Positions 291 through 62,279 of a stretch of 64,000 bases of DNA are shown here, one piece after another. Origin of the DNA: an uncultured Acidobacteriota bacterium (lineage in GTDB: Bacteria > Acidobacteriota > Vicinamibacteria > Marinacidobacterales > DATDRI01); contig CAVONV010000002.1 in NCBI GenBank assembly GCA_963697355.1, positions 56,372 through 120,371 on the forward strand, written 5' to 3'. Numbering within the stretch: the first letter of the stretch is position 1; each line of letters opens with the position of its first letter. Below the pieces are notes generated by a model. It was given only the letters and a program-made list of their open reading frames with translations, made no database searches and was not told where the DNA came from. The position numbers and the translations under genes are program-made.

Positions 291-2996
291 CTACTGCAAG
301 GTGCCCATCGCGAGAGCGAAGGCCGCTCTAGCACCAAGAAGCACCGCGACTAGGAGGAAAGCCACAGCCGGTAGCTTTGCCCAAAAACGATAGGTCATGG
401 CGCGGTCGACCAGCAAGCCCCCGCCGACCGCGACGGGCACCATTACGAAGTAATGGTGCTTGAGGATGAAGTTGAAAAAGACGTCAAAAAAGCTGAAGAC
501 GATCAATATGGACGCCCAGGCGAGTAAGATGAATCGAGCGTCTACGCGGGACCGAACGCCGAGACCGGCCAAGCTCGCAAGTCCCACGAGAGGAATGAGA
601 GACGTGCCAAAACTGTAAGCCAGTTTGCGAGGCACCATGGACAGGCGTGCCCAAATGGAGAAGGGCTCGTCGCCTCCCGAAACAAGGAGGATGGGTATCG
701 ACTCACGCAGAAAAGGCATGACCCAGTGGATGTAGTAAATGAAAAACGCCGCGGCCAATGAAGCGGAAGTGCATCCTGCGAGGTGCCTGCCAGATTGAGG
801 ATTCTTCCGGAAGACGAAAGGCAACGCCAAAGCCAACGTGAAAACAGTAAAAAGAAGGGAAGCCGTATAGGAAAGGTACGCTAGAGTCAATAGTGCGACG
901 GCACCCCACCAGTAGGTTCTCAGGCCCAGTCGATCCAAATAGAAGATGACGAAGGCAAGTGCCAACGATGCCGCCCAACATCCGAACACGGTGAGAAAAT
1001 GGGACAGGGCCAGGAGTTGATAGGTGGCCGTCATGGTCACCGTGAGGAGAGCTGCCCAAACCCCCGCCCTCGCGTTTCCAAATCGCCGTGCCAAGGCTGC
1101 AGCAAGGAAAGCCATACAAGTGAGCATCGATACTTGTAGTAGCTTTTGAAGAAACGCGAACCATGAAGCAGGCAACGCCGTTAGGGGAGCTATCAACGTG
1201 TGATAGGTGCAAGGGTAAGGTACGACAAGCCCCCCCCACTGTGCTTCGCGACTCAGGATGTTGTCTGGATGAGGCAAATAGAAAACGAGGAATTTCCCCT
1301 TCCAGATCTCTTCCGCTATCGATGAGTGGTAGAGGAAGTGCAAACCTTTGTAAAGCGGAAAGGCCATGGCGGTGAGCCAAACGATGAAACCTACCTGAAT
1401 CACTGCTAGTGCAAGCGATCTCGCGTGAAAGTCGGAGGACGAAGCTGAATCGAGATGGAGAAGGCCTCCTCCCAAAAGGGCACCGATGGAAGCCAGGAGG
1501 CAGATCCCCAAGAGCGTCCCCGCGAAGGGGATGAAAAGGACGGGATTGAAGAACAACGCATAAAGCACCGCGCCCAGGAAAAATGCCGTGCCGGCGGTGC
1601 ACCAGCGTGCCGGCAGACCCGTAGCCCCCAATCCCCAAAGGAAGACCAAGGTCGCACCAAGAAACGCGAGAACCGTTCTCAGCGAAGGGAGAGCCCGGCC
1701 GCGTTGAATGACAACGCGGTCGATGCGAAGTCTTCCGGCGTTTGTTGCGGCCGGAAACTCGATTCGGAGTCCGGAGCGCCATCCGACGGGGGCCGGAGCG
1801 ACGAGTCTCGTCTCCGTCCATGTATCGCCAAGGGCTGCTTCGACCTCGGAATAGCCCGCCCGAGCAAGGGGCAAGACGGCGGCATTGTTCTCATCCAATG
1901 AAGCCGTAATGGTGATTTGCCAGTTGGTTCCTCCTCCAAAATCACGCAAATCAATTTGGGAGCCCGCCAAAGCGCGCCGGAAAGTGACGCCCCTCTCGGC
2001 GTCGAAGGAAGCGAATCGGTCAACCAGAGTTGTCTCTTGCCCCGAGCCCAAATCGATGTCCAATTCGGGACGAGCCAAGTAGGCAATCGACAGACCCGAA
2101 AAACCTGCAATCGCGATAACCAAGGTCGTCCACCGGGTGACGCTGTCCAGCCCTTGCCGGGCAGCCATTCCTGTGGCGAGGAAGAGTTGACGCACTAGAT
2201 CCACCAGGGAAGGAAAGAGCTTGGTCACGGCGAAAGCGACGAAGGTCAGGAGTAGGAGTGGTATGACGGCTGAGGCCATGTAGCCTCGAGCCCATGCATA
2301 GGCACCACCCATGAGACAGGCGCCGATCAATCCGGAACGCGATGCACTGCTTGGGCGAAGCCCGACTCGAACAAGAGTTCCAAAAAACAGGCAAAGCGTG
2401 AGGCTCGCGAGCACAACTTGTCGAAGAGACGGAAAACCCCAAACCAACGCGGAGCCTCGAGGCAGCCAACGTGCTTCGTGAACGCGAACGCCCAAGGATC
2501 GTTCATCGGTTGGCCCGGGTGTGAAGGTCTCGGAGCGCAAACAAACCCTGATATCGGAGCTCCACCATCCTCGTGACGCGGCGGGAATTTGGAGGCTCTC
2601 AATGCGCCGGCGCGCCTCGAACTGTTGCGTCGATCCTGGAGTCTCGAGAACCACGAGAGGGTTCTTCTGTCCTCTCGGGCGGAAGCCGGCGATGTCGAGT
2701 GCGACCTTTCCCCGGCGCCCCGGTCCAATGTCCGGGAAAGTAACGCAGCTTCTGGAACGGCTCCAGCGGTAGTCGCCTTCTGCGTCGTGAAATCCCTCGA
2801 CGAAAGGCGTGCTCCAGAACGCGCGGCCGACGGGTACGGCGATAGGCCGGTTGATTTGGTAGCCGATGGTTGTGGACAGGATGGAGGCGAGAATGAGCCA
2901 AAGGAGCTCTCTGCCACCGCTTCGCTTTTGGGAGCCTCTTGTACTGGCCGAAGAACCCTTTGTTATTGGAGCTTCGGGAGGTTCTTCTTGAAGCAT
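291..2996 (-). CDS. Large polytopic integral membrane protein (about 900 aa), possibly a GT-C-like glycosyltransferase; internal ATG at 2996 preferred over the track start at 3230
   Basis: Long ORF with GC3-biased codons. There is one N-terminal TM segment, then a soluble loop of about 190 aa containing TPFVEGFHDAEGDYRWS, then 13 or more hydrophobic helices. Starting at MLQEEPP removes the overlap with the divergent neighbour. Confidence 0.55.
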   Translation of the reverse strand: MLQEEPPEAPITKGSSASTRGSQKRSGGRELLWLILASILSTTIGYQINRPIAVPVGRAFWSTPFVEGFHDAEGDYRWSRSRSCVTFPDIGPGRRGKVALDIAGFRPRGQKNPLVVLETPGSTQQFEARRRIESLQIPAASRGWWSSDIRVCLRSETFTPGPTDERSLGVRVHEARWLPRGSALVWGFPSLRQVVLASLTLCLFFGTLVRVGLRPSSASRSGLIGACLMGGAYAWARGYMASAVIPLLLLTFVAFAVTKLFPSLVDLVRQLFLATGMAARQGLDSVTRWTTLVIAIAGFSGLSIAYLARPELDIDLGSGQETTLVDRFASFDAERGVTFRRALAGSQIDLRDFGGGTNWQITITASLDENNAAVLPLARAGYSEVEAALGDTWTETRLVAPAPVGWRSGLRIEFPAATNAGRLRIDRVVIQRGRALPSLRTVLAFLGATLVFLWGLGATGLPARWCTAGTAFFLGAVLYALFFNPVLFIPFAGTLLGICLLASIGALLGGGLLHLDSASSSDFHARSLALAVIQVGFIVWLTAMAFPLYKGLHFLYHSSIAEEIWKGKFLVFYLPHPDNILSREAQWGGLVVPYPCTYHTLIAPLTALPASWFAFLQKLLQVSMLTCMAFLAAALARRFGNARAGVWAALLTVTMTATYQLLALSHFLTVFGCWAASLALAFVIFYLDRLGLRTYWWGAVALLTLAYLSYTASLLFTVFTLALALPFVFRKNPQSGRHLAGCTSASLAAAFFIYYIHWVMPFLRESIPILLVSGGDEPFSIWARLSMVPRKLAYSFGTSLIPLVGLASLAGLGVRSRVDARFILLAWASILIVFSFFDVFFNFILKHHYFVMVPVAVGGGLLVDRAMTYRFWAKLPAVAFLLVAVLLGARAAFALAMGTLQ

Positions 2997-3036
2997 TTGA
3001 GGACGGATCCTAGCACGTTCAATCGAGGCGTCTGAA

Positions 3037-4881
3037 GTGGTTTCCACTTTGCTACCACGGAGACCACCGGCCGTGCTACTCTCTACGCGGTTTCCATTTG
3101 ATCTCGCGTCGGGAGCGATTCTATTGGCGACAGAGCGCAAAGAGCCGCCTCGTTGGTATCCACCGGCCAAGCTCGCTAAGAACCTGGCTTGGATCGCTTG
3201 GATCAATGCCGTCGCATCGCTCCTCACCAACGGTTACACCCTGCAGTGGCTCGAGCCAACGGTCTCCCGCAGGGCGCTCGTGCTGCTCAGTCTCGCCGTC
3301 GCGGCGGCGATCTCCGGCTGGACAAGATATGGAGTTCCCGCCTCTCGCGAAGGTTGGAAGAAGTGGGCTCGCTCTCTCGTGGTGCCCGCTTTGCTCATCC
3401 TCATCCTAGCGGCGGCTTTTGGCCTTCGTGTTTGGGGGATTACCTACGGACTCCCGCAAAGCTACATCCCCGATGAATACGACTATGTCCACTCCGCCCT
3501 TAAAAAGTTAAAAACGGGGGATTTCAATCCAAGGTGGTGGTACTACCCATCCCTCCAGCCTTATCTTTGCACCGCGACCTATCTCGCCGTCTACCTTCAG
3601 AATCTTCCGAGTGGCCGATGGGCAGGTATCCACCAGGTCACGGAGGAGGACATGCTCTATTGGGGACGTTTCTTAGGTGTCGTTTTCGGAACCTTGACGG
3701 TCCTCGTGACGTTTCTATTGGGGCGAAGCCTCTTCAGCACGAAAGTCGGTCTGGTATCGGCTGCTCTGTTGGCGGTCTTTCCCGGTGCCGTGGAGCACTC
3801 TCAGTACAACAAGCCGGACGTCGTACTGTACTTTGCCGTGGTCGTGAGTGTCATCGTAACACTGACCTATCTAGGCAAAGGAGGTTACAAGCTCGCGTTC
3901 GCTTGCGGTGTCGCTATCGGCCTCGCGACGGCGACGAAGTATAACGGCGTGTTGTTGGCAGCACCGTTTCTGATCGCCGTTGCGCTTCGGCATAGGAGGA
4001 GGCTGTTCTCCGAGGTCGATCTCTACGTTGGAGCGGTGGGTGCAGTGATGACCTTCGTCGTCATCAATCCATATTTTCTTGCGGATTTCCCGAGGTTCCT
4101 CGAGCACGTTTCTTTCGACATCTACAGCTATGGGTACCTTGGTCGGCCCGGCGCCGAAGGAGACAACAACTGGTACACTCATGCCGTCTACACGGCTCGC
4201 TACGGCGCGGGTTTCTGGGTGTCCTTGTTCGCGGTTGCGGGTCTAGTTATCGCCTTGTATCGAGCCAGAGGGAGTACGGCTGTCTTTCTGAGCTTTCCCA
4301 TCCTCTACTACTCGCACTACGGTGCTCAGCGTATCAACTGGGCGGGAAACCTCATTGCGGTATATCCCTTCCTCGCGATACTGGCGGGCTACGCTCTCTA
4401 TGAGTTCCTGGCTGTGATCGTCCGACGAATGGGTTCGAAGCGCTATCTCGCCTTCGAGCCCGTCGCCGCGGTGCTTTTGCTCGTGGTTTTGATTTGGTCT
4501 CCCCTCAGAACGTCTATTCGCTTCAACACCGAGTTGACGCTTCCCGACACGGGCAACGTCGCGCGCGAGTGGATCGATGGCGCCTTTCCTCCTGGTACTT
4601 CTTTTGCGGTGGAAAGACACGCGCCTGTTCCGGATCGGAAGAAATACAAAGTGATGCAGGAGGCACGCATCATTCAGAAAGCGCTGCGGAGTTATCGAGA
4701 TCTGGGAGTTGGGTACTTTGTGGTCTCATCACAAGTCTACGAGCGATTCGGGCCGGAGCATCGCCTTTCCAAAGCCTACGATCGCCTATTTCAAGCCTGC
4801 CCGCTCGTAAGAAAATTCGAGCCACTCGAGGGGGAGTTGCAAGGACCGACGATCCGGGTACTCAAAGTGCCACCTGAGTAG
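3037..4881 (+). CDS. GT-C fold glycosyltransferase of the PMT/ArnT-like family (GT39/GT83-like)
   Basis: Multi-TM protein with the first-loop motif YGLPQSYIPDEYDYVHSA, a DE motif typical of lipid-carrier-dependent mannosyl/arabinosyl transferases. It is about 600 aa with a C-terminal soluble domain. Confidence 0.7.
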   Translation: MVSTLLPRRPPAVLLSTRFPFDLASGAILLATERKEPPRWYPPAKLAKNLAWIAWINAVASLLTNGYTLQWLEPTVSRRALVLLSLAVAAAISGWTRYGVPASREGWKKWARSLVVPALLILILAAAFGLRVWGITYGLPQSYIPDEYDYVHSALKKLKTGDFNPRWWYYPSLQPYLCTATYLAVYLQNLPSGRWAGIHQVTEEDMLYWGRFLGVVFGTLTVLVTFLLGRSLFSTKVGLVSAALLAVFPGAVEHSQYNKPDVVLYFAVVVSVIVTLTYLGKGGYKLAFACGVAIGLATATKYNGVLLAAPFLIAVALRHRRRLFSEVDLYVGAVGAVMTFVVINPYFLADFPRFLEHVSFDIYSYGYLGRPGAEGDNNWYTHAVYTARYGAGFWVSLFAVAGLVIALYRARGSTAVFLSFPILYYSHYGAQRINWAGNLIAVYPFLAILAGYALYEFLAVIVRRMGSKRYLAFEPVAAVLLLVVLIWSPLRTSIRFNTELTLPDTGNVAREWIDGAFPPGTSFAVERHAPVPDRKKYKVMQEARIIQKALRSYRDLGVGYFVVSSQVYERFGPEHRLSKAYDRLFQACPLVRKFEPLEGELQGPTIRVLKVPPE

Positions 4882-6007: not shown

Positions 6008-6078
6008 TATAGCACAGGGGCAACGGTCAAGCCCGCCTTCGTTGACGGTCCCGATTCACTGTCGCCGACTTCAACGCG

Positions 6079-6222
6079 TCAGTCGACGGGCTGCCTGTCA
6101 TCAGACTCGACGGGGAGCTGAGTTTGGTGACTACTCGAATAGCCGCGGAAAGGGCTGATCCACTGCGCTAGTTGAAGGAGAAGAGCCCCAACGAGAACGA
6201 CGAGAACGATAAATGTGCGCAT
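6079..6222 (-). CDS. Small hypothetical membrane peptide (47 aa), not in the ORF track
   Basis: AAGGAGG lies 5 nt upstream of the ATG (complement of 6220-6222). Translation MRTFIVLVVLVGALLLQLAQWISPFRGYSSSHQTQLPVESDDRQPVD has one TM helix plus an acidic tail. The stop is the complement of 6079-6081. Confidence 0.35.
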   Translation of the reverse strand: MRTFIVLVVLVGALLLQLAQWISPFRGYSSSHQTQLPVESDDRQPVD

Positions 6223-6615: not shown

Positions 6616-7995
6616 ATGCATCGAATCGCCGCATTGAAGAGCGAGTGGAAACCCATGCTGGCGCTTGCCATACCTGTGGTCGCGGCCGAGCTCGGTTGGG
6701 TGGCCATGGGAACGGTTGACACCATGATGGTGGGCCGCGTAAGTGCCGAGGCTATTGGAGCCGTTAGTCTGGGAACGGCTCTTTTCCTGGCGGTGGCAAT
6801 TTTTGGCATGGGGCTACTGTTGGGATTGGATACATTGGTTTCCCAAGCCTTTGGTGCCGGTCGGATCGATGACTGTCATCGAGCCCTCGTGCACGGGGTC
6901 TACTTGAGCCTGTTGTTGGCGCCCGTCCTCATGTTGATGGTGTCTCTTCTCGTGCAACTGCTGGATGTCTGGGGTACCGATCCGCGAGTGGTGGCGCTCA
7001 CCATTCCTTATGTGGAAAAAGTGACATGGAGCCTGCTGCCGTTACTTCTGTACGCAAGCTTCCGGCGCTATCTACAAGCCATGGGTCTAGTCAAACCGGT
7101 CATGTTCGTTTTGATCACCGCCAACATCGTGAACGCGATCGTCAACTGGTTGCTCATTTTCGGCAATCTGGGCGCACCAGCTCTCGGCGTCGTTGGAGCA
7201 GGTTGGGCGACGTTCGTCTCTCGCACCTTCATGGCCGTTGGGCTCTTCCTGTACATCCTCTATAACGACTACCGCCAACAGACCGGCCTTTTCCGTGTAA
7301 CCTTCGCGTTCGAGTCGTCCCGCATGAGAGAGCTGCTCGCTTTAGGGTTTCCCGCGGCGGGTCAACTCACGCTCGAGCTCGGCGTTTTTGCTGCTGCAAC
7401 AGCTCTTGTGGGTAGACTCGACTCCGTTTCGCTTGCCGCCCATCAAATTGCGCTAACTGCCGCCAGCATCACATTCATGGTTCCTCTCGGGGTCTCTTCG
7501 GCGGGAGCCGTGCGGGTAGGGCAGAATCTCGGACGGGGAGAATCTCGAGCCGCTGGACACGCGGGATGGACGGCTCTTATTCTCGGCGCAGGATTCATGT
7601 CGCTCAGCGCCCTTTGTTTTCTCTTGTGGCCGAGCTACATTCTCCGCGCCTTTACTTCCGAAGAAGCCGTCGTGACGGCGGGAGTCTCTTTGTTGTTCGT
7701 TGCCGCCTTCTTTCAGTTGTTTGACGGGATTCAGGTCGTAGCTACGGGGATCCTGCGCGGGGCCGGAGACACGCGAACTCCTATGTTGAGTAATCTTGTC
7801 GGCCATTGGTTTCTAGGCCTCCCCATCGGTGTCACTTTGTGCTTCCTTTTGGACTGGGGAGTGGTGGGAATCTGGATAGGGCTGTCCTTCGGATTGATTG
7901 GTATCGGCATCGTGCTTCTTTACGTCTGGACACGCCGTGTTCGGTACCTCAACCGGAGCTCAGCAGACCATCAAAACGTGAAGATTTTTGAATGA
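6616..7995 (+). CDS. MATE family efflux transporter
   Basis: 12-TM protein with MATE repeats, about 459 aa. ATG 6616 is preferred over the track start 6484 because it gives a typical N-terminus. Confidence 0.85.
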   Translation: MHRIAALKSEWKPMLALAIPVVAAELGWVAMGTVDTMMVGRVSAEAIGAVSLGTALFLAVAIFGMGLLLGLDTLVSQAFGAGRIDDCHRALVHGVYLSLLLAPVLMLMVSLLVQLLDVWGTDPRVVALTIPYVEKVTWSLLPLLLYASFRRYLQAMGLVKPVMFVLITANIVNAIVNWLLIFGNLGAPALGVVGAGWATFVSRTFMAVGLFLYILYNDYRQQTGLFRVTFAFESSRMRELLALGFPAAGQLTLELGVFAAATALVGRLDSVSLAAHQIALTAASITFMVPLGVSSAGAVRVGQNLGRGESRAAGHAGWTALILGAGFMSLSALCFLLWPSYILRAFTSEEAVVTAGVSLLFVAAFFQLFDGIQVVATGILRGAGDTRTPMLSNLVGHWFLGLPIGVTLCFLLDWGVVGIWIGLSFGLIGIGIVLLYVWTRRVRYLNRSSADHQNVKIFE

Positions 7996-8040
7996 GATTC
8001 TTGAGTACTTGGGTACTCGAGTTCTCGAGTACCTACCGTG
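7996..8040. repeat. Degenerate GAGTTCTT-type tandem repeat with a small palindrome between convergent genes
   Basis: tgagattcttgagtacttgggtactcgagttctcgagtacc contains the hairpin GAGTAC ttgg GTACTC and octamer-like units shared with sites at 18.5, 25.2, 50.7 and 55.8 kb. Confidence 0.4.
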
Positions 8041-8080
8041 ACCAACCTCGTTGTACTCCGGGCCTCAGCGCTCCTCGACC

Positions 8081-9601
8081 CTACATCATCAAGGCGGCGG
8101 CAATGGAGACGATGCCGTTGAAGAAGTAACCGAGCTGCAAGTTCTCATTGGGGCTATGCTGGTTGTTGTCGAAGTTGACAATGGGCACCGATATGGCGGG
8201 AAGCCCGAGCTTCCGGACGAAAGGCGAGATGGGGACCGTGCCACCGCTGGTACGGATCCGAACAGGCGGCTCACCCCAAGTTCTTTCCAGAGCCTCAACG
8301 AGTTTCGCGGCTTGGGGATCATTGAGTGGGGTTCGGTAGGCTTCGGTACCCTTGCCATGTCGCACCACCTTCACAATCTTGGAATGGCGAGACCGGGTAG
8401 CGTCATCCGGGTCCTCATCCGTGATGTGGTAGCCCTGCTTCTGGATGTGAACGATCACTTTGTCGAACATGATGTCGGCTGGTGTTTCCTCGACCAAGCG
8501 GACATCGATCTCGGCGACGGCTCGATCGGGAACGATGGTACGCACTTCGGCTTCGACCCAAGCGGAACGGAGCCCCCGGATGTTGAGAGAAGGATACTGC
8601 CGCGCTTCTTGAAGCGATCGGCCGACTTTGTCAGGTTCTGCAATACCAAACGCTTTCATCAGTGCTTCATGATCGTCGGGAACCGAATCGAGGACCTTCT
8701 GATCTTCCGATGAGATGGCGATGCCATCGTAGAAGCCTTCAATGACCGTCCGGCCCCCGTCATCTTTCATTGAGGCCAAGAGCCGTGCTAGGCGGATGGC
8801 GGGATTCGGGGTCCAGTTCCCGTAGTGCCCGCTATGAAGGGACATTTTGGGCCCGTAAGTGGTGAGCTGGAGCGTTAGTATTCCGCGAGCACCATAGACC
8901 AACGTGGGTCGGTTCGAATAGTGGATGGGGCCATCTAGAATCAACATCAAGTCGGCCTTCAGTTTCTCTCGGTATTTGTCGATGGCCGGCGCCAAGCTGG
9001 GGGAGCTTGCTTCCTCTTCCCCATCTAGGATGACTCGGATGTTGGATGTTGGTCGGTGTCCTGCAGCGCGAATGGCATCGATGGCGGCGACGATGGCGAT
9101 AATGGGCGACGTGTCATCGGAGGCCGACCGCGCATAGAGACGCCATTTGGGATCGAATCTATCCGCTCCTTCGAGATCGATCTCCTTGGCACGATCCTCC
9201 ATCTTGCCGTCTCGAAGGATCGGCCGAAAAGGGTCTTCTTGTTTCCAAAGAGAGCGATCGACGGGTTGCCCATCGTAGTGAGCGTAAAGAAGAAGCGTCC
9301 GTCGAGCCCCAGGCACTTTGAGCTCACCGTAGACAAGAGGATTTCCTTCCGTCTCCAAGAGCTCTGCCCGAAAGCCACGACCGGCGAGCGTCCTTTCGAG
9401 GTGCTCGGCTTTTCTCCGGATATTTTCTCGGTCGGCAGCGACGTCGGGAATCCGGAGTGTCTCGACGAGCTCGTCAATGATGGCTTTTTGGTGAGTTTCG
9501 ATGTAGGTCTCGACCTGACCCTTGAGCTCGTCAGCGGAAAGAGGATTTGCCGAAATGGCTGCTATGAAAGCGAGGCTGGTTGAAGCGCGAACCCAGTGCA
9601 T
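8081..9601 (-). CDS. M20 family metallopeptidase (dipeptidase, ArgE/DapE/CPG2-like), secreted
   Basis: LLLYAHYDGQPVD and ILDGEEEASSP metal-binding motifs. ATG 9601 (MHWVRASTSLAFIAAISANP) gives a signal peptide. Confidence 0.8.
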   Translation of the reverse strand: MHWVRASTSLAFIAAISANPLSADELKGQVETYIETHQKAIIDELVETLRIPDVAADRENIRRKAEHLERTLAGRGFRAELLETEGNPLVYGELKVPGARRTLLLYAHYDGQPVDRSLWKQEDPFRPILRDGKMEDRAKEIDLEGADRFDPKWRLYARSASDDTSPIIAIVAAIDAIRAAGHRPTSNIRVILDGEEEASSPSLAPAIDKYREKLKADLMLILDGPIHYSNRPTLVYGARGILTLQLTTYGPKMSLHSGHYGNWTPNPAIRLARLLASMKDDGGRTVIEGFYDGIAISSEDQKVLDSVPDDHEALMKAFGIAEPDKVGRSLQEARQYPSLNIRGLRSAWVEAEVRTIVPDRAVAEIDVRLVEETPADIMFDKVIVHIQKQGYHITDEDPDDATRSRHSKIVKVVRHGKGTEAYRTPLNDPQAAKLVEALERTWGEPPVRIRTSGGTVPISPFVRKLGLPAISVPIVNFDNNQHSPNENLQLGYFFNGIVSIAAALMM

Positions 9602-18009: not shown

Positions 18010-18471
18010 ATGGATCGACATAGTGACTACGTAGCGGTCGTGGGCGCGTCGGAATGTGACAATGACGTAGCTTGCTTGGCGGAAAGTACGGGCAAGTCGA
18101 TTGCTCGAGCAGGAGCCGTGCTCGTCTGCGGTGGGATGGGAGGGGTTATGGAGGCGGCGGCCCGAGGGGCGAAGCAGGAGGGCGGGTTTACCATTGGTCT
18201 ATTGCCCGGGGTGAGTCGAATGGCTGCTAATCGTTACATCGATTTGGCAATCGCCACAGGTCTCGGCCATTTCCGCAATTTTCTAATCGCCCAGACGTCT
18301 GACGCTCTCATTGCCGTGACCGGCAAATACGGTACCCTTTCGGAGATGGCTATGGGACTCATTTTGGGGAAGACCGTTGTCGGCTTGGGATCGTGGGACA
18401 TCGAAGGTGTCGTATCGGCGTCGAGCCCCGAAGAGGCCGTCCGCCTCGCCCTAGCCTCCACTAAAAAGTAG
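18010..18471 (+). CDS. TIGR00725/LOG-family Rossmann-fold protein
   Basis: VAVVGAS...LVCGGMGGVMEAAARGA...IGLLP...ALIAVTGKYGTLSEMA. ATG 18010 is preferred, with the GA-rich RBS gagagagggggaacc. Confidence 0.75.
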   Translation: MDRHSDYVAVVGASECDNDVACLAESTGKSIARAGAVLVCGGMGGVMEAAARGAKQEGGFTIGLLPGVSRMAANRYIDLAIATGLGHFRNFLIAQTSDALIAVTGKYGTLSEMAMGLILGKTVVGLGSWDIEGVVSASSPEEAVRLALASTKK

Positions 18472-18526
18472 GGTAACTGAGTTCTCGGGTTCTTGAGTTC
18501 TGGTTTCTCGAGTTCTTGAGTTCTTC
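18472..18526. repeat. Tandem degenerate octamer (GTTCTTGA)n, about 6 units
   Basis: gttctcgg gttcttga gttctggt ttctcga gttcttga gttcttcc. The same motif recurs at 7996, 25101, 25231, 50661 and 55820. Confidence 0.5.
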
Positions 18527-18979
18527 CTATAGATACTGCCGATAGACCGGGTTGGAGCGGCAATAGTCTTGAATCGCTCTGGTGATGATGAGGGCATCCT
18601 CTGGTGTGGGGTCGAGAAAATACAAACCAAACCCGGGCGGGAGGCTGTGAACCGGGTGCGCTTGATACGGATTGACCCAAGCCACGACCGCGCTGACGGA
18701 CAGACGTCGGTCGTTTCCCGGAACGTAAAAACTCACTTTGAGAGACTCGTCTTTTGTGGGTAACAAGTCCGTGGCCACGTAGGCACCTTTTAGTGAGAGA
18801 TCCAGCATCAAGCCATCATGTTCGACTCGAGACCGGAGGAGACAGCAGCGGCGTATGAACGGGATTCGGAGCGTGCGGGGAACATAAGGAGGGGAGGCAT
18901 TCTTTCCCGACCTCCGGGATAGTCCTTTTCTGGAAGCCGGAGTCACAATAGCTCTCAGAATCGTCTGGGCACAAGACAC
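18527..18979 (-). CDS. PilZ domain protein (putative)
   Basis: Arg-rich segment RRCCLLRSR followed by LDLSLKGAYV (D-x-S-x-x-G), then a beta-rich C-terminus. The spacing is atypical, so this is a tentative call. Confidence 0.45.
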   Translation of the reverse strand: MSCAQTILRAIVTPASRKGLSRRSGKNASPPYVPRTLRIPFIRRCCLLRSRVEHDGLMLDLSLKGAYVATDLLPTKDESLKVSFYVPGNDRRLSVSAVVAWVNPYQAHPVHSLPPGFGLYFLDPTPEDALIITRAIQDYCRSNPVYRQYL

Positions 18980-25100: not shown

Positions 25101-25290
25101 AACTGCCTCTTATCAAGAACTCAAGCCCGCCTCCGTCGGTGATGCCGATTCGTCGCCACCGACTTCGGCGAGGCCTCGCCGAAGCCGTTGGTTCGCAATC
25201 TCGAGCACCAACGGCGGAGGCGGGAATTCAAGAACTCAAGAACTCAAGAATTCAAGAACTCGAGAGTCGAGAGATTGTAGCGATCTTGCG
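25101..25290. repeat. Composite imperfect palindrome containing CTTCGGCGAGGCCTCGCCGAAG and four CAAGAACT octamers
   Basis: It lies in the divergent promoter region between the UbiA-like gene and galK. The core hairpin is the 22-bp perfect palindrome cttcggcgagg/cctcgccgaag. It is homologous to segments at 55951-56000 and 56205-56225. Confidence 0.5.
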
Positions 25291-31873: not shown

Positions 31874-31984
31874 AGATATCAACCGGATCGAGACGCCAGA
31901 TGTTAGATCGGACTGATCTTGTTGATCAATAAGCATCTCATTGAAGGAGAAAGGAGAGAGGAGGAAGGAGAAAGACAACGGGCT

Positions 31985-32130
31985 CGATTACCCGGCGGGT
32001 TTGACGTGGGCGGGTGGCAAGTAGCGACTGCTTGACTGCCCGCCTACGCGGTATTTGATTTCTACTCAGCTTCGGCGGGTCCGCTGTAGCCTTGGCGTAG
32101 GCGGACTCGACTGCTTGACCGCTTGCATTG
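31985..32130. repeat. Copy of the mosaic intergenic repeat (GACTGCTTGACTGCC and CTTCGGCGGGTCCGC modules)
   Basis: gcgactgcttgactgcccgcctacgcgg ... cttcggcgggtccgctgtagccttggcgtaggcggactcgactgcttgaccgc. These modules are shared with 50.6-50.75 kb. Confidence 0.4.
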
Positions 32131-40658: not shown

Positions 40659-41327
40659 GCTGAAAGCTTCAACCGCGCCGGGGAGGGTTCCCTTCGGTTC
40701 CCTCCCCTTTTTTGTGTCTCGAGGTTCTTCGCAGAGGACAATTCTCTCTACATCTGTGTGGTACAGGTAGGTTTTGCCCGCATGTTCCAATTCAACGAGA
40801 AACCCCTCTGTCTCGACCTTATCGTAGGTCTTCCCTTCTTCTGGACAGCCTAAGCTCGTGTCCGGCCAAGTCTTGAATCTCACATAGTTGATCTTGATGT
40901 CGTCTGCATCGATGCGGAGCCTCTCGGCGAGCTCTTGCTTTGCTTGTCCCGAGATCCTCTCGGCGGCGACGAGACGTTCTTTCTTCGGGACATAGGGGCT
41001 CTTTTGCTTCTCCTGACAAATGACAGCACGTCCACCGCCCACGTGGACGCGATAAACCTGCTCACCGTGGCGAAAAACAACCCTATAGCCGGGGATGATG
41101 ACCTGAAGGTAAGACGTTCCCTTTTCGGGGCATCCCAGGCTGCTGTCCGGCCATTTCACGGGATAGGCCTTCGGAATTCCTGCCTCCCCGTCCCTGACGT
41201 GGAGCTCTCGGGCGAGTGTTTCGGTTGCGAGATCGATGGCTTCTTGTTCGGTCATCTCCTGCATTGGAGCAAAAGACGATGCCAGCAACAGGCCAACTAC
41301 CAGCGATAGCATTTTGACCCCCTCCAA
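40467..41327 (-). CDS. Secreted protein with two tandem Cys-containing modules of about 55 aa (paralog B); the C-terminal extension is doubtful
   Basis: Signal peptide MLSLVVGLLLASS. The two modules contain WPDSSLGCPEKG...C and WPDTSLGCPEEG...C. The ORF continues about 75 aa past the second module, across the antisense of the subtilase terminator. Confidence 0.5.
   Translation of the reverse strand: MEGVKMLSLVVGLLLASSFAPMQEMTEQEAIDLATETLARELHVRDGEAGIPKAYPVKWPDSSLGCPEKGTSYLQVIIPGYRVVFRHGEQVYRVHVGGGRAVICQEKQKSPYVPKKERLVAAERISGQAKQELAERLRIDADDIKINYVRFKTWPDTSLGCPEEGKTYDKVETEGFLVELEHAGKTYLYHTDVERIVLCEEPRDTKKGREPKGTLPGAVEAFSLFQLYEYPIVIGVKQLIADHQDVVNAFRIDDGGTLRRVEGTSASDHVEVFIKDDEIQIVGGES
40680..40713 (+). 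terminator. Rho-independent terminator of the S8 peptidase gene
   Basis: GGGGAGGG, a 13-nt loop, CCCTCCCC, then TTTTTT. Confidence 0.6.
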
Positions 41328-44879: not shown

Positions 44880-47800
44880 TCGCCTTGCTCTCGCGCGCAA
44901 GTTGGAAGAGGCCGGACTCGACCGGATAACCGAACGACTCACCGCCGGGGAGGGTCGCTTTCAGCTCACGGGTCTCATGGGACCCGCGCGCTCACTTGCC
45001 CAAGCGGTACTGATTTCTCGATCGGCGGGGCCGGTTCTGTTCGTCGTTTCGGACGAGCGAAGAGTGGCCGAGGCGGTATCCGACCTGAGTGCCTTCCTCC
45101 ACTCGTGGGGCATCGACAAGAAGCTATTCAATTTCCCGGCGCTCGAAGTCGATCCGTACCGTGGTCTTTCGCCTCATTTCAACGTCGTCTCGGCCCGTGC
45201 CCGAGCGCTCACGGCTCTCATCGAGGAAGACTCGCCGGTCATCGTGGCACCGGTACCGGCTCTTCTCTACCGGACGGCCTCGCCGTCCGTTTTTTCCGAG
45301 GGAATCGTCAATCTTCGTCGCAGAGCCATTTTCGAGCCGGGCGAGCTGGAGCGAAGGCTTCTAGAAGCCGGCTATATCCATGAAGATCCCGTGATGTCGC
45401 CGGGCGATTTCGCTCGTCGCGGAGGGATTCTCGATGTGTATCCTCCAGATGCTCGAGAGCCCTTTCGGCTGGAATTCGTGGGTGAGGAGATCGAAGAGAT
45501 CCGTACGTTTGGTCCCGAGACGCAACGTACGACGGGCTCTTTGGATGGGGTCCGCATCTGTCCTGCCCGAGAGTGGCCTTTCAATGATTCCCATCGCGAA
45601 GAGCTCTTGGTGCGGTTGAGGGAAAAAGGCGTAGCGAGCGAGTTGAAAGCCAACATTGAGAAAGGAAGTTTCCCGCCGGGCATCAACTTTGCGCTGCCCG
45701 AGCTCGACGATTTCAAGAGCACGTTCTTCGACTACGTCGGCAAGGGAATCGTGTTGATAGAAGAACCGGTGGAAGTCTTTCGATGTGCATCAGCAGAATG
45801 GGAACGTGTCCTCGATAGCTACGGAGAGGTACCCAGGCGAGCTGGAATCGCCCAACCCGAACCGGCCATGCTCCTTCTTTCTCCGGACGAGCTTTCGTCG
45901 CGCTTGGCGGAGCGATCGGTAAGCTTCCAGGAAATGGACATCGTGGAGAGCCTCCCAACTGAGGATGTGGAGTCCAGCCAAAGGGTCCATCTATCGAGTC
46001 AGCTCCTACCGGTGTTTCGTGGGAACATCAAGGATTTCGTCGACGAGATCCGAAGGCAAAAGGGGGCGCTCCGACAAGTCCATATTTTCGTTGGCCATCG
46101 CGGTCTCGCCGAACGACTGATCGAGATCCTCCAAGAATCTGATATGTCGGCGGGATTGACGGACGATGGGCCGGTAGAAGCAGGCACGGTGGCGTTGCAC
46201 CTCGGCGACCTCTCCCACGGCTTTGCTCTTCCCGAGCTCGGCCAAGCCGTTTTTTCCGGCCGAGATCTCTTTAGTGAGCCGCCGCGATCCGAGAAACGTC
46301 GTGCCCATAAACTGGGTCGCTTTCTTTCCGATTTTCGTGATTTGAAGCTGGGGGATTACGTGGTCCATGTCGATCATGGCATTGGCGTCTTCACGGGCCT
46401 CACGCAGGTGTCCGGGAACGGCGATAATGCTGAGTTCGTTCTCCTCGAGTACATGGGCGGCGACAAACTCTACGTACCCGTGGAGAAGCTTGATCTGCTC
46501 GAAAAGTACTCGAGCTCAGAGAGTGCGAAGCCCAAACTCGATAAGCTCGGAGGTACGGGGTGGGAAAGGGTCAAAAAACGCGTCCGCAAGTCCATGCGCG
46601 ACATGACCCAGGAGCTCCTCCAACTCTATGCGGCTCGAAAAGCCATCCCCGGGCACGCTTTCTCAGCGGATACGCATTGGCAGGCCGAGTTCGAGGACTT
46701 GTTCGAGCACGAGGAGACAGGCGACCAGTTTCAAGCCATCGATGAAGTCAAGCGAGATCTCGAAGCGACCTTTCCGATGGATAGGCTTTTGTGTGGTGAC
46801 GTCGGCTACGGCAAGACGGAAGTGGCGATGCGGGCCGCCTTCAAGGTCGTCATGGATGGAAAACAGGTGGCTGTCTTGGTGCCCACCACGGTACTGGCAT
46901 TCCAACACTACAACACCTTCAAGGCCCGTTTTGCTCCTTTCCCAGTTCACGTCGAAATGTTGTCACGTTTCAAGACTCCCAAAGAGCAAAAAGTGATCGT
47001 GAAGGGGGCGTCGGAAGGGACGATCGACATCCTCATCGGAACCCATCGCCTGCTATCCAAGGACGTCGAGTTCCATGATCTCGGACTCTTGGTTGTTGAT
47101 GAAGAGCAGCGGTTCGGGGTGAGTCACAAAGAGCGCGTCAAGAAGATGCGCCGCCGAGTGGATTGCTTGACGATGACCGCGACTCCGATACCACGAACGC
47201 TCAACATGTCCCTATCGGGCGTCCGGGATCTTTCCGTCATCGAAACGCCTCCTAAAGATCGGATGGCGATCCAAACCTATATCACGCACATCGACGAGAA
47301 AGTTCTTGCGAAAGCCATGCGATATGAGCTCGGTCGTGGGGGGCAGGTGTACTTCGTCCACAATCGGGTGGGGTCGATCTACTCGATGGCTTCTTTTCTC
47401 CAACGACTCGTGCCCGAGGCGCGCATTGTCGTGGCGCACGGACAGATGAAGGAGTCCGAGCTCGAGACGGCCATGCTCCGCTTCATAGGTCGCGAGTTCG
47501 ATGTCCTCGTGAGCACCACGATCATCGAGAATGGTCTGGACATCCCCCTCGTCAATACACTCATCGTCAACCGAGCCGATCGCTTTGGGCTCTCTCAGCT
47601 ATACCAGTTACGCGGACGTGTCGGCCGGTCGAGTCGCCGCGCCTATGCCTACTTGCTCGTGCCCGATCGAAAACAGCTTACTCCCGTTGCAAGAAGGCGC
47701 TTGGCGGCGATCAGGGAGTTCAGTGACCTCGGTGCTGGTTTCCGTATCGCGGCTTTGGATCTCGAGCTGCGCGGCGCCGGCAATTTGCTGGGCGGTGAGC

Positions 47801-48354
47801 AACACGGGCACATCGAAGCTGTCGGTTTTGACATGTACGTCAAGCTCCTCGAGGAGACGGTGCGTGAGCTCTCAGGAGAAGAGGATGCTGACGTCGCCCG
47901 TGCAACCTTGAGCCTCAGGATCGATCTTCGGATTCCCGAGGCATTCATTCCGGATCCTAACCAGCGGATGTCGGTCTACAAGCGGGCGTCTTCCGCTCGA
48001 GATCATACAACTCTCGAGGGGTTGGCGGCGGAGATCCGGGACCGGTACGGTCCCCTTCCGACACCCTTACTGCAGCTTCTAGAGTACGCGCGTCTACGGT
48101 TGTTGGCCGAAAAGGTAAGGGTCGTTTCAATTGAGCGAGAAGCCGGTCTTCTCGCCTTCCGTTTCGATCCGTCCTCGCCGGTGGACCCGGCCCGGCTGGT
48201 CCAGCTGGCAGAACGCGTCGCTGGAGCTCAACTGACGCCGGGAGGCCTGTTGAAGTTTCGTTTGGCGGGTTACGAAGTCCCGGAGCTCCTCTCGACAGTC
48301 AGGGAGGTTTTGCTAGAGCTCAATCCCTACTCTATGATGGCGGAGAGGACGTGA
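44839..48354 (+). CDS. mfd: Transcription-repair coupling factor
   Basis: CarD-like/TRCF domains and DEAD-box helicase motifs [25 protein letters not shown] and QLRGRVGR. The start is ambiguous (ATG 44839 overlapping upstream, or TTG 44902). Confidence 0.9.
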
Positions 48355-50449: not shown

Positions 50450-50750
50450 GGCGCTCCATGGTCAGAAGCCAGTAGGCAGCCAGTAGAAGTGACCAGAGGT
50501 CAGTGGGCGGTAGGCGGTGGACAGTGAAGAAAGAGGCCAGGGAACAGTGGCCAGTGAAGAAGAAAGTAGGCGGTAGGCCGTCCGCCTATTCAAGCTTAGG
50601 GCGGACCCGCCGACCGCCTTCGCATGAGCTTCGGCGAGGCCTTGACGTAGCTTGGGCGAAGGCGGGCTCGAGTTCTTGAGTTCTTCGCCGGAGAGGTTCC
50701 AACTTTGACTGCTTGACTGCCCAGTAAGGACATACAACAATCCGAAACGA
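50450..50750. repeat. Mosaic intergenic repeat block L (CTGG-unit tandems, a 43-nt core, a palindromic hairpin and octamer modules)
   Basis: The 43-nt core 50583-50625 is 42/43 identical in inverse orientation to 56005-56047. Flanking modules are also shared in the same inverse order. Confidence 0.55.
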
Positions 50751-52139: not shown

Positions 52140-52330
52140 TTCACTGTCTACTGCCGACAGTCCCAATAGCTTCTTCTTCACTTCCAACTAACTTGCCGCG
52201 GGCAGGGGCAAGGGCACGGGCACGGGGCATCCGCACGAAGTTAGTCTCTGACGCGGCGGACGTCCTGACCGTGCAGATGCTGGTCACTGGCTGCTGTTTA
52301 CTGATTCTGGTGACTACTCTTCAGTCCATC
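52140..52330. repeat. Two-copy element: G-tract run plus conserved hairpin (copy 1)
   Basis: gcggggcaggggcaagggcacgggcacgggg (5 G-tracts), then the hairpin catccgcacg / cgtgcagatg. It is about 85% identical over about 130 bp to 62120-62260. Confidence 0.5.
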
Positions 52331-55707: not shown

Positions 55708-55789
55708 TTTCGGCTCCTGTGGCGGTCTTCCCTTTTTTGCCGCTCGGTCTCTTCCAACAGACTTCCCTGCAATTGTACGTTTTCACCGA

Positions 55790-56330
55790 ACCGTCAAACA
55801 GTCAAAGTTAGGACTCCTCCGGCGAAGAACTCAAGGACTCGAGAAGACAGTGATTCGACCACTATGTCGACTGGATTTGTGCCCTTGACTGACCCAACTG
55901 GTCACTGTGAACCCGCCTTCGCTCATTGCGTCACGCTGTTGGCTTCCGCCTCCGTCGGCGGCGCCGATTCTTGCCACCGACCTTGGCGAGACTCGCCGAA
56001 GCGAATGCGAAGGCGGTCGGCGGGTCCGCGCTAAGCTTGAATAGGCGGACTGCCCACTGCCCACCGCCCACCGCCTACTTTCTTCTTCACTGGTAACTGG
56101 TCACTGGCTTCTGGCCTCTCTTCTTTTGCTGGTCACCCGCCTTCGCCGCCAAGTCTTATCATCGGCGGCTACCGCCTCCGTCGCTGAATCGATCGATGGG
56201 CCAGCGACTTCGGCGAGTCTCGCGGTAGCTCCGCAAGGGAGTCGGTCGAGACGGAGCGTAGGCGGACTGGTCACTGATCACTTCTACTGTCTGCCTACTG
56301 GCTTCTTTCCACTAACGGCGTATACTTGTG
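55790..56330. repeat. Mosaic intergenic repeat block R (internally duplicated unit of about 220 bp), inverted relative to block L
   Basis: Unit A is 55900-56125 and unit B is 56129-56330. They share cgccttcgc..ccgcctccgtcg..cttcggcgag.ctcgc..taggcggactg..cactg..ctggcttct. There is no ORF with coding-like composition. Confidence 0.55.
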
Positions 56331-62099: not shown

Positions 62100-62279
62100 A
62101 AAAAAGTCTCACGTGACTGGCAACTGTTCGCTCTTCCAACTAACTAGCCTATGGCAGGGGCAAGGAGCAAGGGATCGGGCAGGGGCACGGGGCATCCGCA
62201 CGAAATTAGTCTCCGATGCAGTGGACGTCCCGGCCGTGCGGATGCTGATAACTGCTCACTGGCTCCTGGCCTCTTCTCC
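62100..62279. repeat. Two-copy G-tract plus hairpin element (copy 2)
   Basis: ggcaggggcaaggagcaagggatcgggcaggggcacgggg, then the perfect hairpin gcatccgcacg / cgtgcggatgc at 62192-62202 and 62235-62245. Confidence 0.5.

Follow-up and report, generated by a model that had tools for sequence, protein, structure and literature searches.

An extragenic octamer repeat family, inherited at orthologous sites and changing by whole units, in an uncultured Acidobacteriota lineage

A 64,000-nucleotide stretch of DNA from an uncultured Acidobacteriota bacterium (GCA_963697355.1, contig CAVONV010000002.1, positions 56,372 to 120,371; hereafter the window) contains a tandem array of octamers at 18478–18526, between two convergent genes. 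The gene 5′ of the array belongs to the TIGR00725 family (121.8 bits, cut-off 106.9) and is assigned in Pfam to LDcluster4 (PF18306), a SLOG cluster-4 protein; its TAG stop lies at 18469–18471 on the + strand and the array begins 6 nt further on. The convergent gene encodes a PilZ-domain protein (18527–18979, − strand), and its stop codon at 18527–18529 lies 0–1 nt from the end of the array, so that the whole 55-nt spacer is taken up by the repeat. The units read, in order, TGAGTTCT CGGGTTCT TGAGTTCT GGTTTCT CGAGTTCT TGAGTTCT TC, with the GAGTTCTT-type sequence on the + strand and the AAGAACTC-type on the − strand; Tandem Repeats Finder (TRF) reports a period of 8, 6.1 copies, 70% matches and a score of 54. 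The original prediction, made by reading the sequence, had placed six degenerate octamers downstream of the TIGR00725 gene, which holds, one unit being of 7 nt. Its description of the array as lying immediately after a stop codon is true and incomplete, the array abutting the stops of both convergent genes.

The tract is real and non-random and is one of six copies of an extragenic microsatellite family in the window (Table 1). The unit is CTYRAG plus AA or TT, giving (AAGAACTC)n on one strand and (GAGTTCTT)n on the other. Recurrence at five or more intergenic sites had been predicted, and six are present; every site listed earlier exists, with small corrections to the coordinates. The one given as 25101–25115 lies at 25113–25125, and the array at 25225–25271, counted earlier as four units, has about six.

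Table 1. Octamer tracts and the associated palindrome in the window. L-numbers are labels of metagenomic contigs compared with the window.
Feature	Positions	Strand	Basis or context
Octamer array, five degenerate units	7993–8033	.	Sequence, comparison with second assembly and L200
Octamer array, six units (one 7 nt)	18478–18526	.	Sequence, TRF, orthologues L113 and L112
Short octamer tract TCAAGAACTCAAG	25113–25125	.	Left of GC-rich palindrome
99-nt GC-rich imperfect palindrome, REP/MITE-like	25126–25224	.	Repeat comparison, folding
Octamer array, about six units, AAGAACTC-type on + strand	25225–25271	.	Divergent UbiA/galactokinase intergenic region
1.5-unit relic CTCGAGGTTCTTCGC	40718–40732	+	Directly after canonical hairpin and T-run terminator
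2.4-unit tract CTCGAGTTCTTGAGTTCTT	50667–50685	+	Left arm of large inverted repeat
Mirror copy of 50667 tract	55825–55844	−	Right arm of inverted repeat, upstream of DUF2784/M14 peptidase operon

The window has 56.8% G+C, and only 7.4% of it (4.7 kb) is intergenic, against 59 kb of coding sequence. Exact GTTCTTGA occurs nine times where 2.6 occurrences are expected, a count attained in none of 100 shuffles. The doubled unit (GAGTTCTT)x2 with up to three mismatches gives 13 matches against 0.56 expected and a shuffle maximum of 2; twelve of the 13 fall in the six intergenic sites, and the lone coding match (62525) is at chance level. Exact single units number nine in intergenic and three in coding DNA, a difference in density of ∼37-fold within the window. 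All six array sites are intergenic, as had been claimed of the motif; the probability that six independent sites would all be so is ∼2e-7. The copies are arranged head to tail with a period of 8, in 4–6 copies at four sites and 2–2.4 at two. Period, arrangement, excess over many loci (six sites in 64 kb) and predominantly non-coding location are those of the dispersed tandem families of 7–9-mers.

The sites differ in their surroundings. The array at 7993–8033 reads TGAGATTC TTGAGTAC TTGGGTAC TCGAGTTC TCGAGTAC; its first unit holds the TGA stop of a MatE gene, and a perfect palindrome, GGTACTCGAGTTCTCGAGTACC, occupies positions 8012–8033 inside it. The short tract at 25113 lies 13 nt upstream of the start of the UbiA gene (− strand), and the larger array on the far side of the palindrome has 5.2 copies of period 8 in TRF, with 88% matches. 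Around the tract at 50667 the order is GC palindrome, tract, CGCCGGAG, a promoter-like TTGACT-N17-AACAAT (50713–50741) and the S4/dus operon; this promoter-like sequence, 27 nt downstream of the tract, was the sole relevant site in a promoter/terminator scan. The right flank TTCTTCGC(C/A)G is common to the copies at 40718, 50667 and 55825. Octamer arrays are accordingly found in either orientation and in convergent, divergent and promoter-upstream settings, some of them upstream of a −35 box.

The PilZ/TIGR00725 neighbourhood is syntenic in metagenomic contigs of relatives, and the array is present there. Read from the PilZ stop, the window spacer is TAG-G-(AAGAACTC-type)x6. The spacer of L113 (87% PilZ identity) reads TAA-AC-AAGAAATC AAGAATTC AGGAATTC AAGAAATC AGGAAG..., of the (AAGAAATC/AAGAATTC)x5 type, and that of L112 (73% PilZ identity) reads TAA-AGAGAACTC AAGAACTC GAGAACTC AAGAATTC GAGAATTC, of the (GAGAACTC/AAGAATTC)x5 type. 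Both arrays have the position and orientation seen in the window, with five units as against six. AGAA.TC is invariant in each unit shared by the three arrays, and the remaining unit variants are lineage-specific and homogenised within each lineage. In L115 and L116 (57% identity) the two stops are 12 nt apart and there is no array, and no octamer array was found in a further 534 kb from relatives of 57–83% identity. We conclude from this comparison that an ancestor of a narrow clade probably acquired the array in its tiny spacer and that the descendants have kept it. With an ancestral spacer of only 12 nt, the array would have come from elsewhere instead of growing out of the local sequence, and insertion into so small a gap would also account for its adjacency to both stops.

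Two further sites can be followed in relatives. In L313, a relative at 77% identity, three units lie upstream of S4 and two upstream of DUF2784, as compared with two and two in the window, and CGCCGGAG and the promoter-like TTGACTG...TACAAT are kept downstream of the octamers, ahead of both operons. L200 shares with the window a stretch of 122 nt (7959–8080; L200 2300–2422) that includes the 7993–8033 array and is ∼95% identical, whereas the M20 peptidase gene beside it is 79.5% identical. The MatE gene, which overlaps this stretch in the window, is missing from L200, and a second octamer array stands there instead. The stretch downstream of M20 could be a conserved non-coding element or the product of recent exchange. 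Arrays are inherited at orthologous sites across species, with position and orientation kept.

Turnover of whole units was seen directly in a second assembly of the same species (ENA ERZ25039600, contig_25032, 867 kb), whose M20 peptidase, DUF2784 and HNH proteins are 100% identical to those of the window. The two assemblies agree at 99.86% over 20.5 kb and differ by six single-nucleotide polymorphisms (SNPs), one single-base indel and one 22-nt gap. The gap, the sole multi-base indel in the aligned 20.5 kb, falls in the 7993–8033 array, where contig_25032 has lost three octamer units and gained AG. The other five of the six arrays (18478, 25113, 25225, 50667 and 55825) are identical in both assemblies. 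The MatE stop codon lies inside the variable array, and gene calls in two further assemblies of the species put it at other distances, with MatE lengths of 491, 499 and 503 residues among the assemblies, which would fit further length alleles. Whole-unit differences between close strains are the mark of hypermutable microsatellites or variable-number tandem repeats, and the change supports whole-unit slipped-strand mispairing or unequal recombination as its source. The suggestion that the array is a slipped-strand microsatellite is thus upheld by the between-strain comparison of copy number proposed with it (whole-unit loss in one of six arrays), by orthologous arrays of six versus five and two versus three units, and by the lineage-homogenised units. 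Descriptively, then, this is a dispersed, extragenic, vertically inherited octamer family that changes by whole units, and of this much we are confident.

The arrays do not correspond to a known RNA or transcription signal. Searches of the whole window with Rfam at the gathering score and for tRNA and tmRNA gave no match, which rules out a known structured RNA family or tRNA at that score, and a permissive Rfam search of 7900–8150 returned only a chance-level snoRNA match (E = 0.85) near 8063–8099. The promoter/terminator scan found no canonical promoter at the arrays and no terminator at any of them, though the window has a canonical hairpin and T-run terminator at ∼40680–40715. The + strand RNA of 18465–18535 folds at −21.1 kcal/mol (z = −2.4), CUUGAG pairing with itself through G-U pairs, and the 7990–8050 region folds on both strands (z = −2.6 and −3.0). 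Folding of the orthologous arrays in L112 and L113 is no stronger than that of shuffled sequence (z = −0.1 to +1.0), and the A-rich strand of the PilZ-site array lacks structure in each of the three orthologues (z = +0.3 to +1.1). A conserved RNA hairpin was therefore rejected, the hairpin in the window having no counterpart in the orthologous arrays, and an intrinsic terminator was ruled out on the same ground together with the terminator scan. Coding was rejected as well: the GAGTTCTT strand has TGA in all three frames, and the other strand is open, yet with a period of 8 nt successive units are read in different frames, and orthologues differ in frame as well. Among known motifs, LexA-type GTTC-N7-GTTC, the GAAC/TCAAG spacing of extracytoplasmic function (ECF) sigma factors, and the Hfq ARN, CsrA GGA and Rho YC signals were each discarded on spacing or conservation. 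An exact-protein look-up of the neighbouring 323-aa gene gave no match.

The intergenic DNA of the host is a mosaic of octamers, heptamer runs, a second octamer, hexamer runs (GGGCA type) and GC palindromes of ∼99 nt. The palindromes look like repetitive extragenic palindromic (REP) or miniature inverted-repeat transposable element (MITE) sequences. The copy at 25126–25224 stands in phase inside an octamer array, and the 8-mers on its two sides, AACTCAAG and AATTCAAG, agree at seven of eight positions, an agreement that is uninformative on target duplication within an 8-bp periodic array. Related palindromes lie near 6032–6110, 50590–50666, 55935–56045 and 56140–56260, with the core CCGCCTCCGTCG...CTTCGGCGAG/CTCGCCGAAG...CGGCGGAGGCGG; predicted folding reaches −64 and −74 kcal/mol (z = −4.9 and −6.2), and the junction between octamer and palindrome is TC(A/G)AG|CCCGCC in three of the five copies. 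On a larger scale, inverted repeats of ∼280 nt (50459–50737 and 55773–56311, 80–90% complementary) carry one octamer tract per arm and enclose 5 kb with the convergent S4-dus and DUF2784-M14 peptidase operons. Each arm has octamers, CGCCGGAG and a TTGACTG...TACAAT pointing into its operon; with the same promoter-proximal sequence in each arm, the regulatory region is thus present twice, one copy mirroring the other. L313 retains both arms.

Other short repeats adjoin these modules. Heptamer runs resembling the short tandemly repeated repetitive (STRR) sequences of cyanobacteria (GACCAGT, GGCCAGT, GGCGGTA, ACTGCCC) occupy 50459–50560 and 56049–56120 in the window, and L313 has CCAGTTA/TCAGTTA x5–6 at 1420–1620 and 6700–6900; such runs differ between species far more than the adjoining octamers do. 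A second octamer, TTGACTGC, is repeated twice at 50705–50720, just upstream of promoter-like −10 boxes, and its variants GACTGCTTGACTGCCC and GACTGCTTGACCGCTTG occur in the divergent region 31979–32127 (32020–32127).

The octamer itself extends well beyond this lineage. An exact 16-mer scan over 185,579 species genomes gave at least 111 loci, where arithmetic predicts ∼280 chance matches, and 64 of the 111 listed carry extended arrays of at least 24 nt. The octamer recurs at many loci in unrelated metagenome-assembled genomes (MAGs) of Acidobacteriota, Chthoniobacterales, Chlorobiota, Pirellulales, the candidate phyla radiation (CPR) and Bacteroidales. The idea that it is specific to this genome fails on these dispersed arrays and on the orthologous ones in species of 73–87% protein identity. 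The recurrence across phyla may be partly an artefact of the search. The 16-mer was not found in a literature text search, and general literature searches for octamer repeats were empty.

Two of these MAGs show the arrays in recurring company. In the Acidobacteriota MAG MFD03804.bin.2.150 there are five arrays (L029 ∼3640–3730, L086 ∼70–160, L096 433–456 and 4458–4497, L108 2058–2096), each starting at or just after a stop codon and followed by a GAGAATGRAACAGGAGGAYGGC-NNN-GCCRTCGTCTTCCGGAT hairpin, whose stems, judged by eye, vary yet stay paired (GACGGCG/CGCCGTC, GATGGC/GCCATC, GACAGC/GCTGTC). A Chthoniobacterales MAG has seven arrays, including two copies of a composite element (loci L021 2331–2477 and 7401–7566; L100 1369–1666). 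In this element a AAGAACTC array is followed by a conserved core of ∼80 nt, which contains the hairpin GCGCTGAAAAGCGC, and then by an inverted GAGTTCTT array; it resembles a MITE or else is a structured RNA closed by a repetitive stem. Array-bearing genomes also carry many other arrays of 7–9 nt. A tandem 9-mer, CACAGATT(A/T), lies beside GAGTTCTT arrays in three loci from two phyla (L009 4600–4640; L046 455–490 and 950–985; L110, minus strand, ∼3881; on Bacteroides, Pirellulales and Sedimentisphaerales contigs), against a chance expectation of ∼0.08 loci, so that the co-occurrence of different repeat units spans phyla.

Several known systems resemble the family. Cyanobacterial STRRs, reportedly described by Mazel et al. 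in 1990, are said to be short tandemly repeated repetitive heptamers. They share with the octamers the dispersal of short tandem units over many non-coding sites of one genome, and the heptamer runs beside the octamers (GACCAGT, GGACAGT and others) look like STRR units. Strict STRRs (STRR1–3) are heptamers of heterocystous cyanobacteria, whereas the unit here has 8 nt, the host is acidobacterial and there is no sequence relationship; flanking-gene homologues at 60–69% identity carry the NCBI names Acidobacteriota, Vicinamibacteria or Vicinamibacterales, names which make the host probably Vicinamibacteria-like. The REP sequences and bacterial interspersed mosaic elements (BIMEs) of enterobacteria are extragenic, strain-variable mosaics of palindromic units and short linkers. 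Like them, the octamers are extragenic, often stand between convergent genes or after stops, and vary between strains; unlike them, the octamers themselves repeat directly in tandem, REP-like form being confined to the 99-nt GC palindromes, and no gene for a REP-associated tyrosine transposase (RAYT) was seen in this comparison. In the contingency loci of Haemophilus and Neisseria, units are gained and lost by slipped-strand mispairing, with differences between strains; the octamers differ in standing neither in reading frames nor between −35 and −10, and in having one unit at many loci. The MatE stop does fall in the variable array, however, and the C-terminus of MatE varies with it.

Geobacter metallireducens offers the closest parallel in form (Aklujkar et al. 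2009, PMC2700814). There, octamers GTTGCTYN stand in tandem fours at 48 sites, the unit TCTCCGTS[Y] in tandem threes at 47 (21 of these being paired sites) and heptamers MTYCTGA in tandem fives at 16. Most of the sites form inverted pairs whose spacing varies, none occurs in G. sulfurreducens, and some have ISGme8/9 at a fixed distance; binding by unidentified global regulators such as IHF/HU was proposed in that paper (PMC2700814). The acidobacterial arrays are likewise dispersed, mostly intergenic, made of 3–5 tandem copies of a 7–9-nt unit with mobile DNA nearby, and present in one species while absent from a close relative. MTYCTGA is even matched by CTCCTGA x3.5 in the species of the window (L312 3491–3515) and by CTTCTGA runs in other array-bearing MAGs. 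The unit sequence and the host phylum are different, and here only the copies at 50667 and 55825 are paired. The Geobacter report contains neither unit-number variation nor orthologous retention, both of which the acidobacterial arrays have.

For the period of the array, the likeness is to plasmid TP228, where the ACTC boxes of parH and the operator, set apart by regular 4-bp spacers, are bound by dimers of ParG (PMC3130281). Arrays with an 8-bp period can thus be coated by a protein. The AAGA-ACTC unit can be read as an ACTC box and an A-rich 4-bp spacer, in arrays of 5–12 boxes, so that tandem boxes with the 8-bp period of a ribbon-helix-helix (RHH) operator are present. The likeness is one of sequence, and unlike the ParG system the arrays are chromosomal and dispersed, and the ACTC box is not kept in L113. 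No par-like, parF/parG or RHH gene occurs among the called neighbours, a screen that left small open reading frames aside.

By analogy with the STRRs and the Geobacter sites, the reading that we somewhat favour is that the octamers form a slippage-driven extragenic repeat family of the same kind, which may also serve at the DNA level as a protein-docking array. The arrays would have been imported into their sites and kept thereafter by slippage turnover. Any role in cis would be exerted on DNA rather than RNA, because they are found both ways round, between convergent genes, in divergent regions and ahead of promoters, some upstream of −35. The most plausible form of such a role would be a series of short boxes in phase, repeated every 8 bp and coated by an abundant DNA-binding protein. 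Docking of this form, for which ParG and Geobacter give precedents and which corresponds to the binding-site array suggested in the original prediction, we regard as possible and rather unlikely; as between a self-renewing repeat devoid of a role and one with a docking role, the two are about equally likely. Several observations weigh against the favoured reading. Spacing by 8 bp puts successive boxes on different faces of the helix, and the ACTC box becomes AATC/ATTC in L113. Array identity at the PilZ site is 50–71%, compared with 76–89% for the flanking coding DNA, and the three-unit loss in contig_25032 removes half of the 7993–8033 palindrome, both of which fit weak or absent constraint. 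In viral contigs the octamer was found at 37 loci and two shuffled octamers at 50 and 22, with extended arrays at 10 of 37 against 5 of 50 and 8 of 22. With no excess there, the octamer itself is not claimed to be special.

The strongest competitor, a serious one which we nonetheless place below even chances, is that an array is neutral or selfish hypermutable DNA with no sequence-specific role, surviving where insertion is harmless, right up to gene edges, and where slippage outpaces deletion. Polymorphic unit number between near-identical strains, with half a palindrome lost, is what it would predict, as are evolution faster than in the flanking coding DNA, lineage-specific unit variants, occurrence in every intergenic context and both orientations, and distant relatives that function with a 12-nt spacer. 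It accounts less well for arrays retained at the same sites across species of 73–87% protein identity, or for the 122 nt around 7993–8033 being so much more alike in L200 (∼95%) than the adjacent gene (79.5%), and one unit at six sites requires a dispersal mechanism beyond plain slippage. Another alternative is a small mobile element, of which the arrays would be by-products or landing pads: a GC-rich palindromic module might insert at CTYRAG, or 8-bp target duplication followed by hairpin-mediated loss might add one unit per cycle, and the inverted arrays of other genomes would act as MITE ends. The palindrome standing in phase between AACTCAAG and AATTCAAG, the recurrent TC(A/G)AG|CCCGCC junction, the flanks shared by 40718, 50667 and 55825, and the twice-copied Chthoniobacterales element with inverted arrays round its core all speak for this, as does a unit as long as a common target duplication. 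We consider it improbable all the same, for no palindrome lies near the solo arrays at 7993 and 18478, the window contains no transposase, an 8-bp duplication in an 8-bp periodic array is indistinguishable from none, and we know of no established bacterial process by which target duplications accumulate. ISGme8/9 near similar Geobacter sites are a further point in its favour (PMC2700814).

A role at the RNA level, in which the GAGUUCUU strand would form a hairpin that terminates or stabilises a transcript and the AAGAACUC strand an unstructured 3′ untranslated region or leader, for instance for Rho or RNase entry, is less probable still. The folding of 18465–18535 and of 7990–8050, and the unstructured A-rich strand of three orthologues, would suit it; GC hairpins precede T-orientation arrays in other MAGs, and in MFD03804 the arrays follow stops and precede a hairpin with a varying but, by eye, paired stem. 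Against this, the arrays of L112 and L113 fold like shuffles, the terminator scan is empty at every array, several arrays lie upstream of promoters in divergent regions, and the excess of C over G is lost in L113. That the arrays are phase-variation loci, unit number switching adjacent promoters or altering the C-terminus of a gene, seems very doubtful: strain-variable unit number, the MatE stop inside a variable array (491/499/503 residues) and arrays ∼27 nt upstream of a −35-like box invite the idea, and yet the arrays lie upstream of that box or between gene ends and not between −35 and −10, five of six are identical in two assemblies, and those between convergent genes have no promoter to switch. 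Equally far-fetched at present is a broader conjecture, that a shared set of 7–9-nt units (GAGTTCTT, CTYCTGA, CACAGATTA and others) makes up a cross-phylum class, spanning Acidobacteriota, Planctomycetota, Verrucomicrobiota, Bacteroidota, CPR, Geobacter and cyanobacteria (STRRs), that is actively written into intergenic DNA and read by a conserved host protein. Writing might proceed by repeated insertion and hairpin-mediated loss of palindromes, with one unit of target-duplication length gained per cycle, or through a templated repeat-adding enzyme; if true, the conjecture would explain why one unit occurs at unrelated sites and why its length equals that of a target duplication.

Whichever reading applies, the window adds an uncultured acidobacterial lineage to the hosts of a recognised yet unexplained type of repeat, and gives direct evidence of orthologous-site inheritance and whole-unit turnover that earlier descriptions lack. 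STRRs have reportedly been on record in cyanobacteria since 1990, and to our knowledge neither function nor dispersal mechanism has been explained for them or for the Geobacter sites. The latter, as multicopy octamer and heptamer sites, have been recorded since 2009 (PMC2700814). The strain pair and public read sets allow the slippage rate to be measured, and discovery of a protein that binds the arrays, or of a mechanism that writes them, would open many unexplained intergenic repeats of environmental genomes to annotation. In practice the arrays serve as markers for typing strains, and short-read assembly breaks at them; Logan contigs of the species stop within the mosaic repeats.

Some further features of the window bear on its intergenic DNA and on differences between the assemblies. 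A module of ∼110 nt is present in two copies (52181–52289 and 62133–62254; 74–83% identical), each between convergent genes, in the order CTTCCAACTAACT..GCC, a GGGCA-type hexamer run and GGCATCCGCACGAA(G/A)TTAGTCTC... At 62142, within this GGGCA-type mosaic repeat, a contig of the other assembly (L312 ∼1900–3560) has a 1.66-kb insertion flanked by ACTA. The insertion encodes an orphan 385-aa gene with no Pfam or NCBIfam match and a four-helix-bundle protein (TIGR02436, 23S rRNA intervening sequence (IVS)/Avd-like), whose stop codon lies inside the CTCCTGA x3.5 heptamer run. Finally, the mfd (TRCF) gene at 45348–47918 differs between the assemblies by ∼150 SNPs and several frame-breaking indels while its flanks are nearly identical, which reflects either a tract acquired from another strain by recombination or chimerism in the metagenome assembly.

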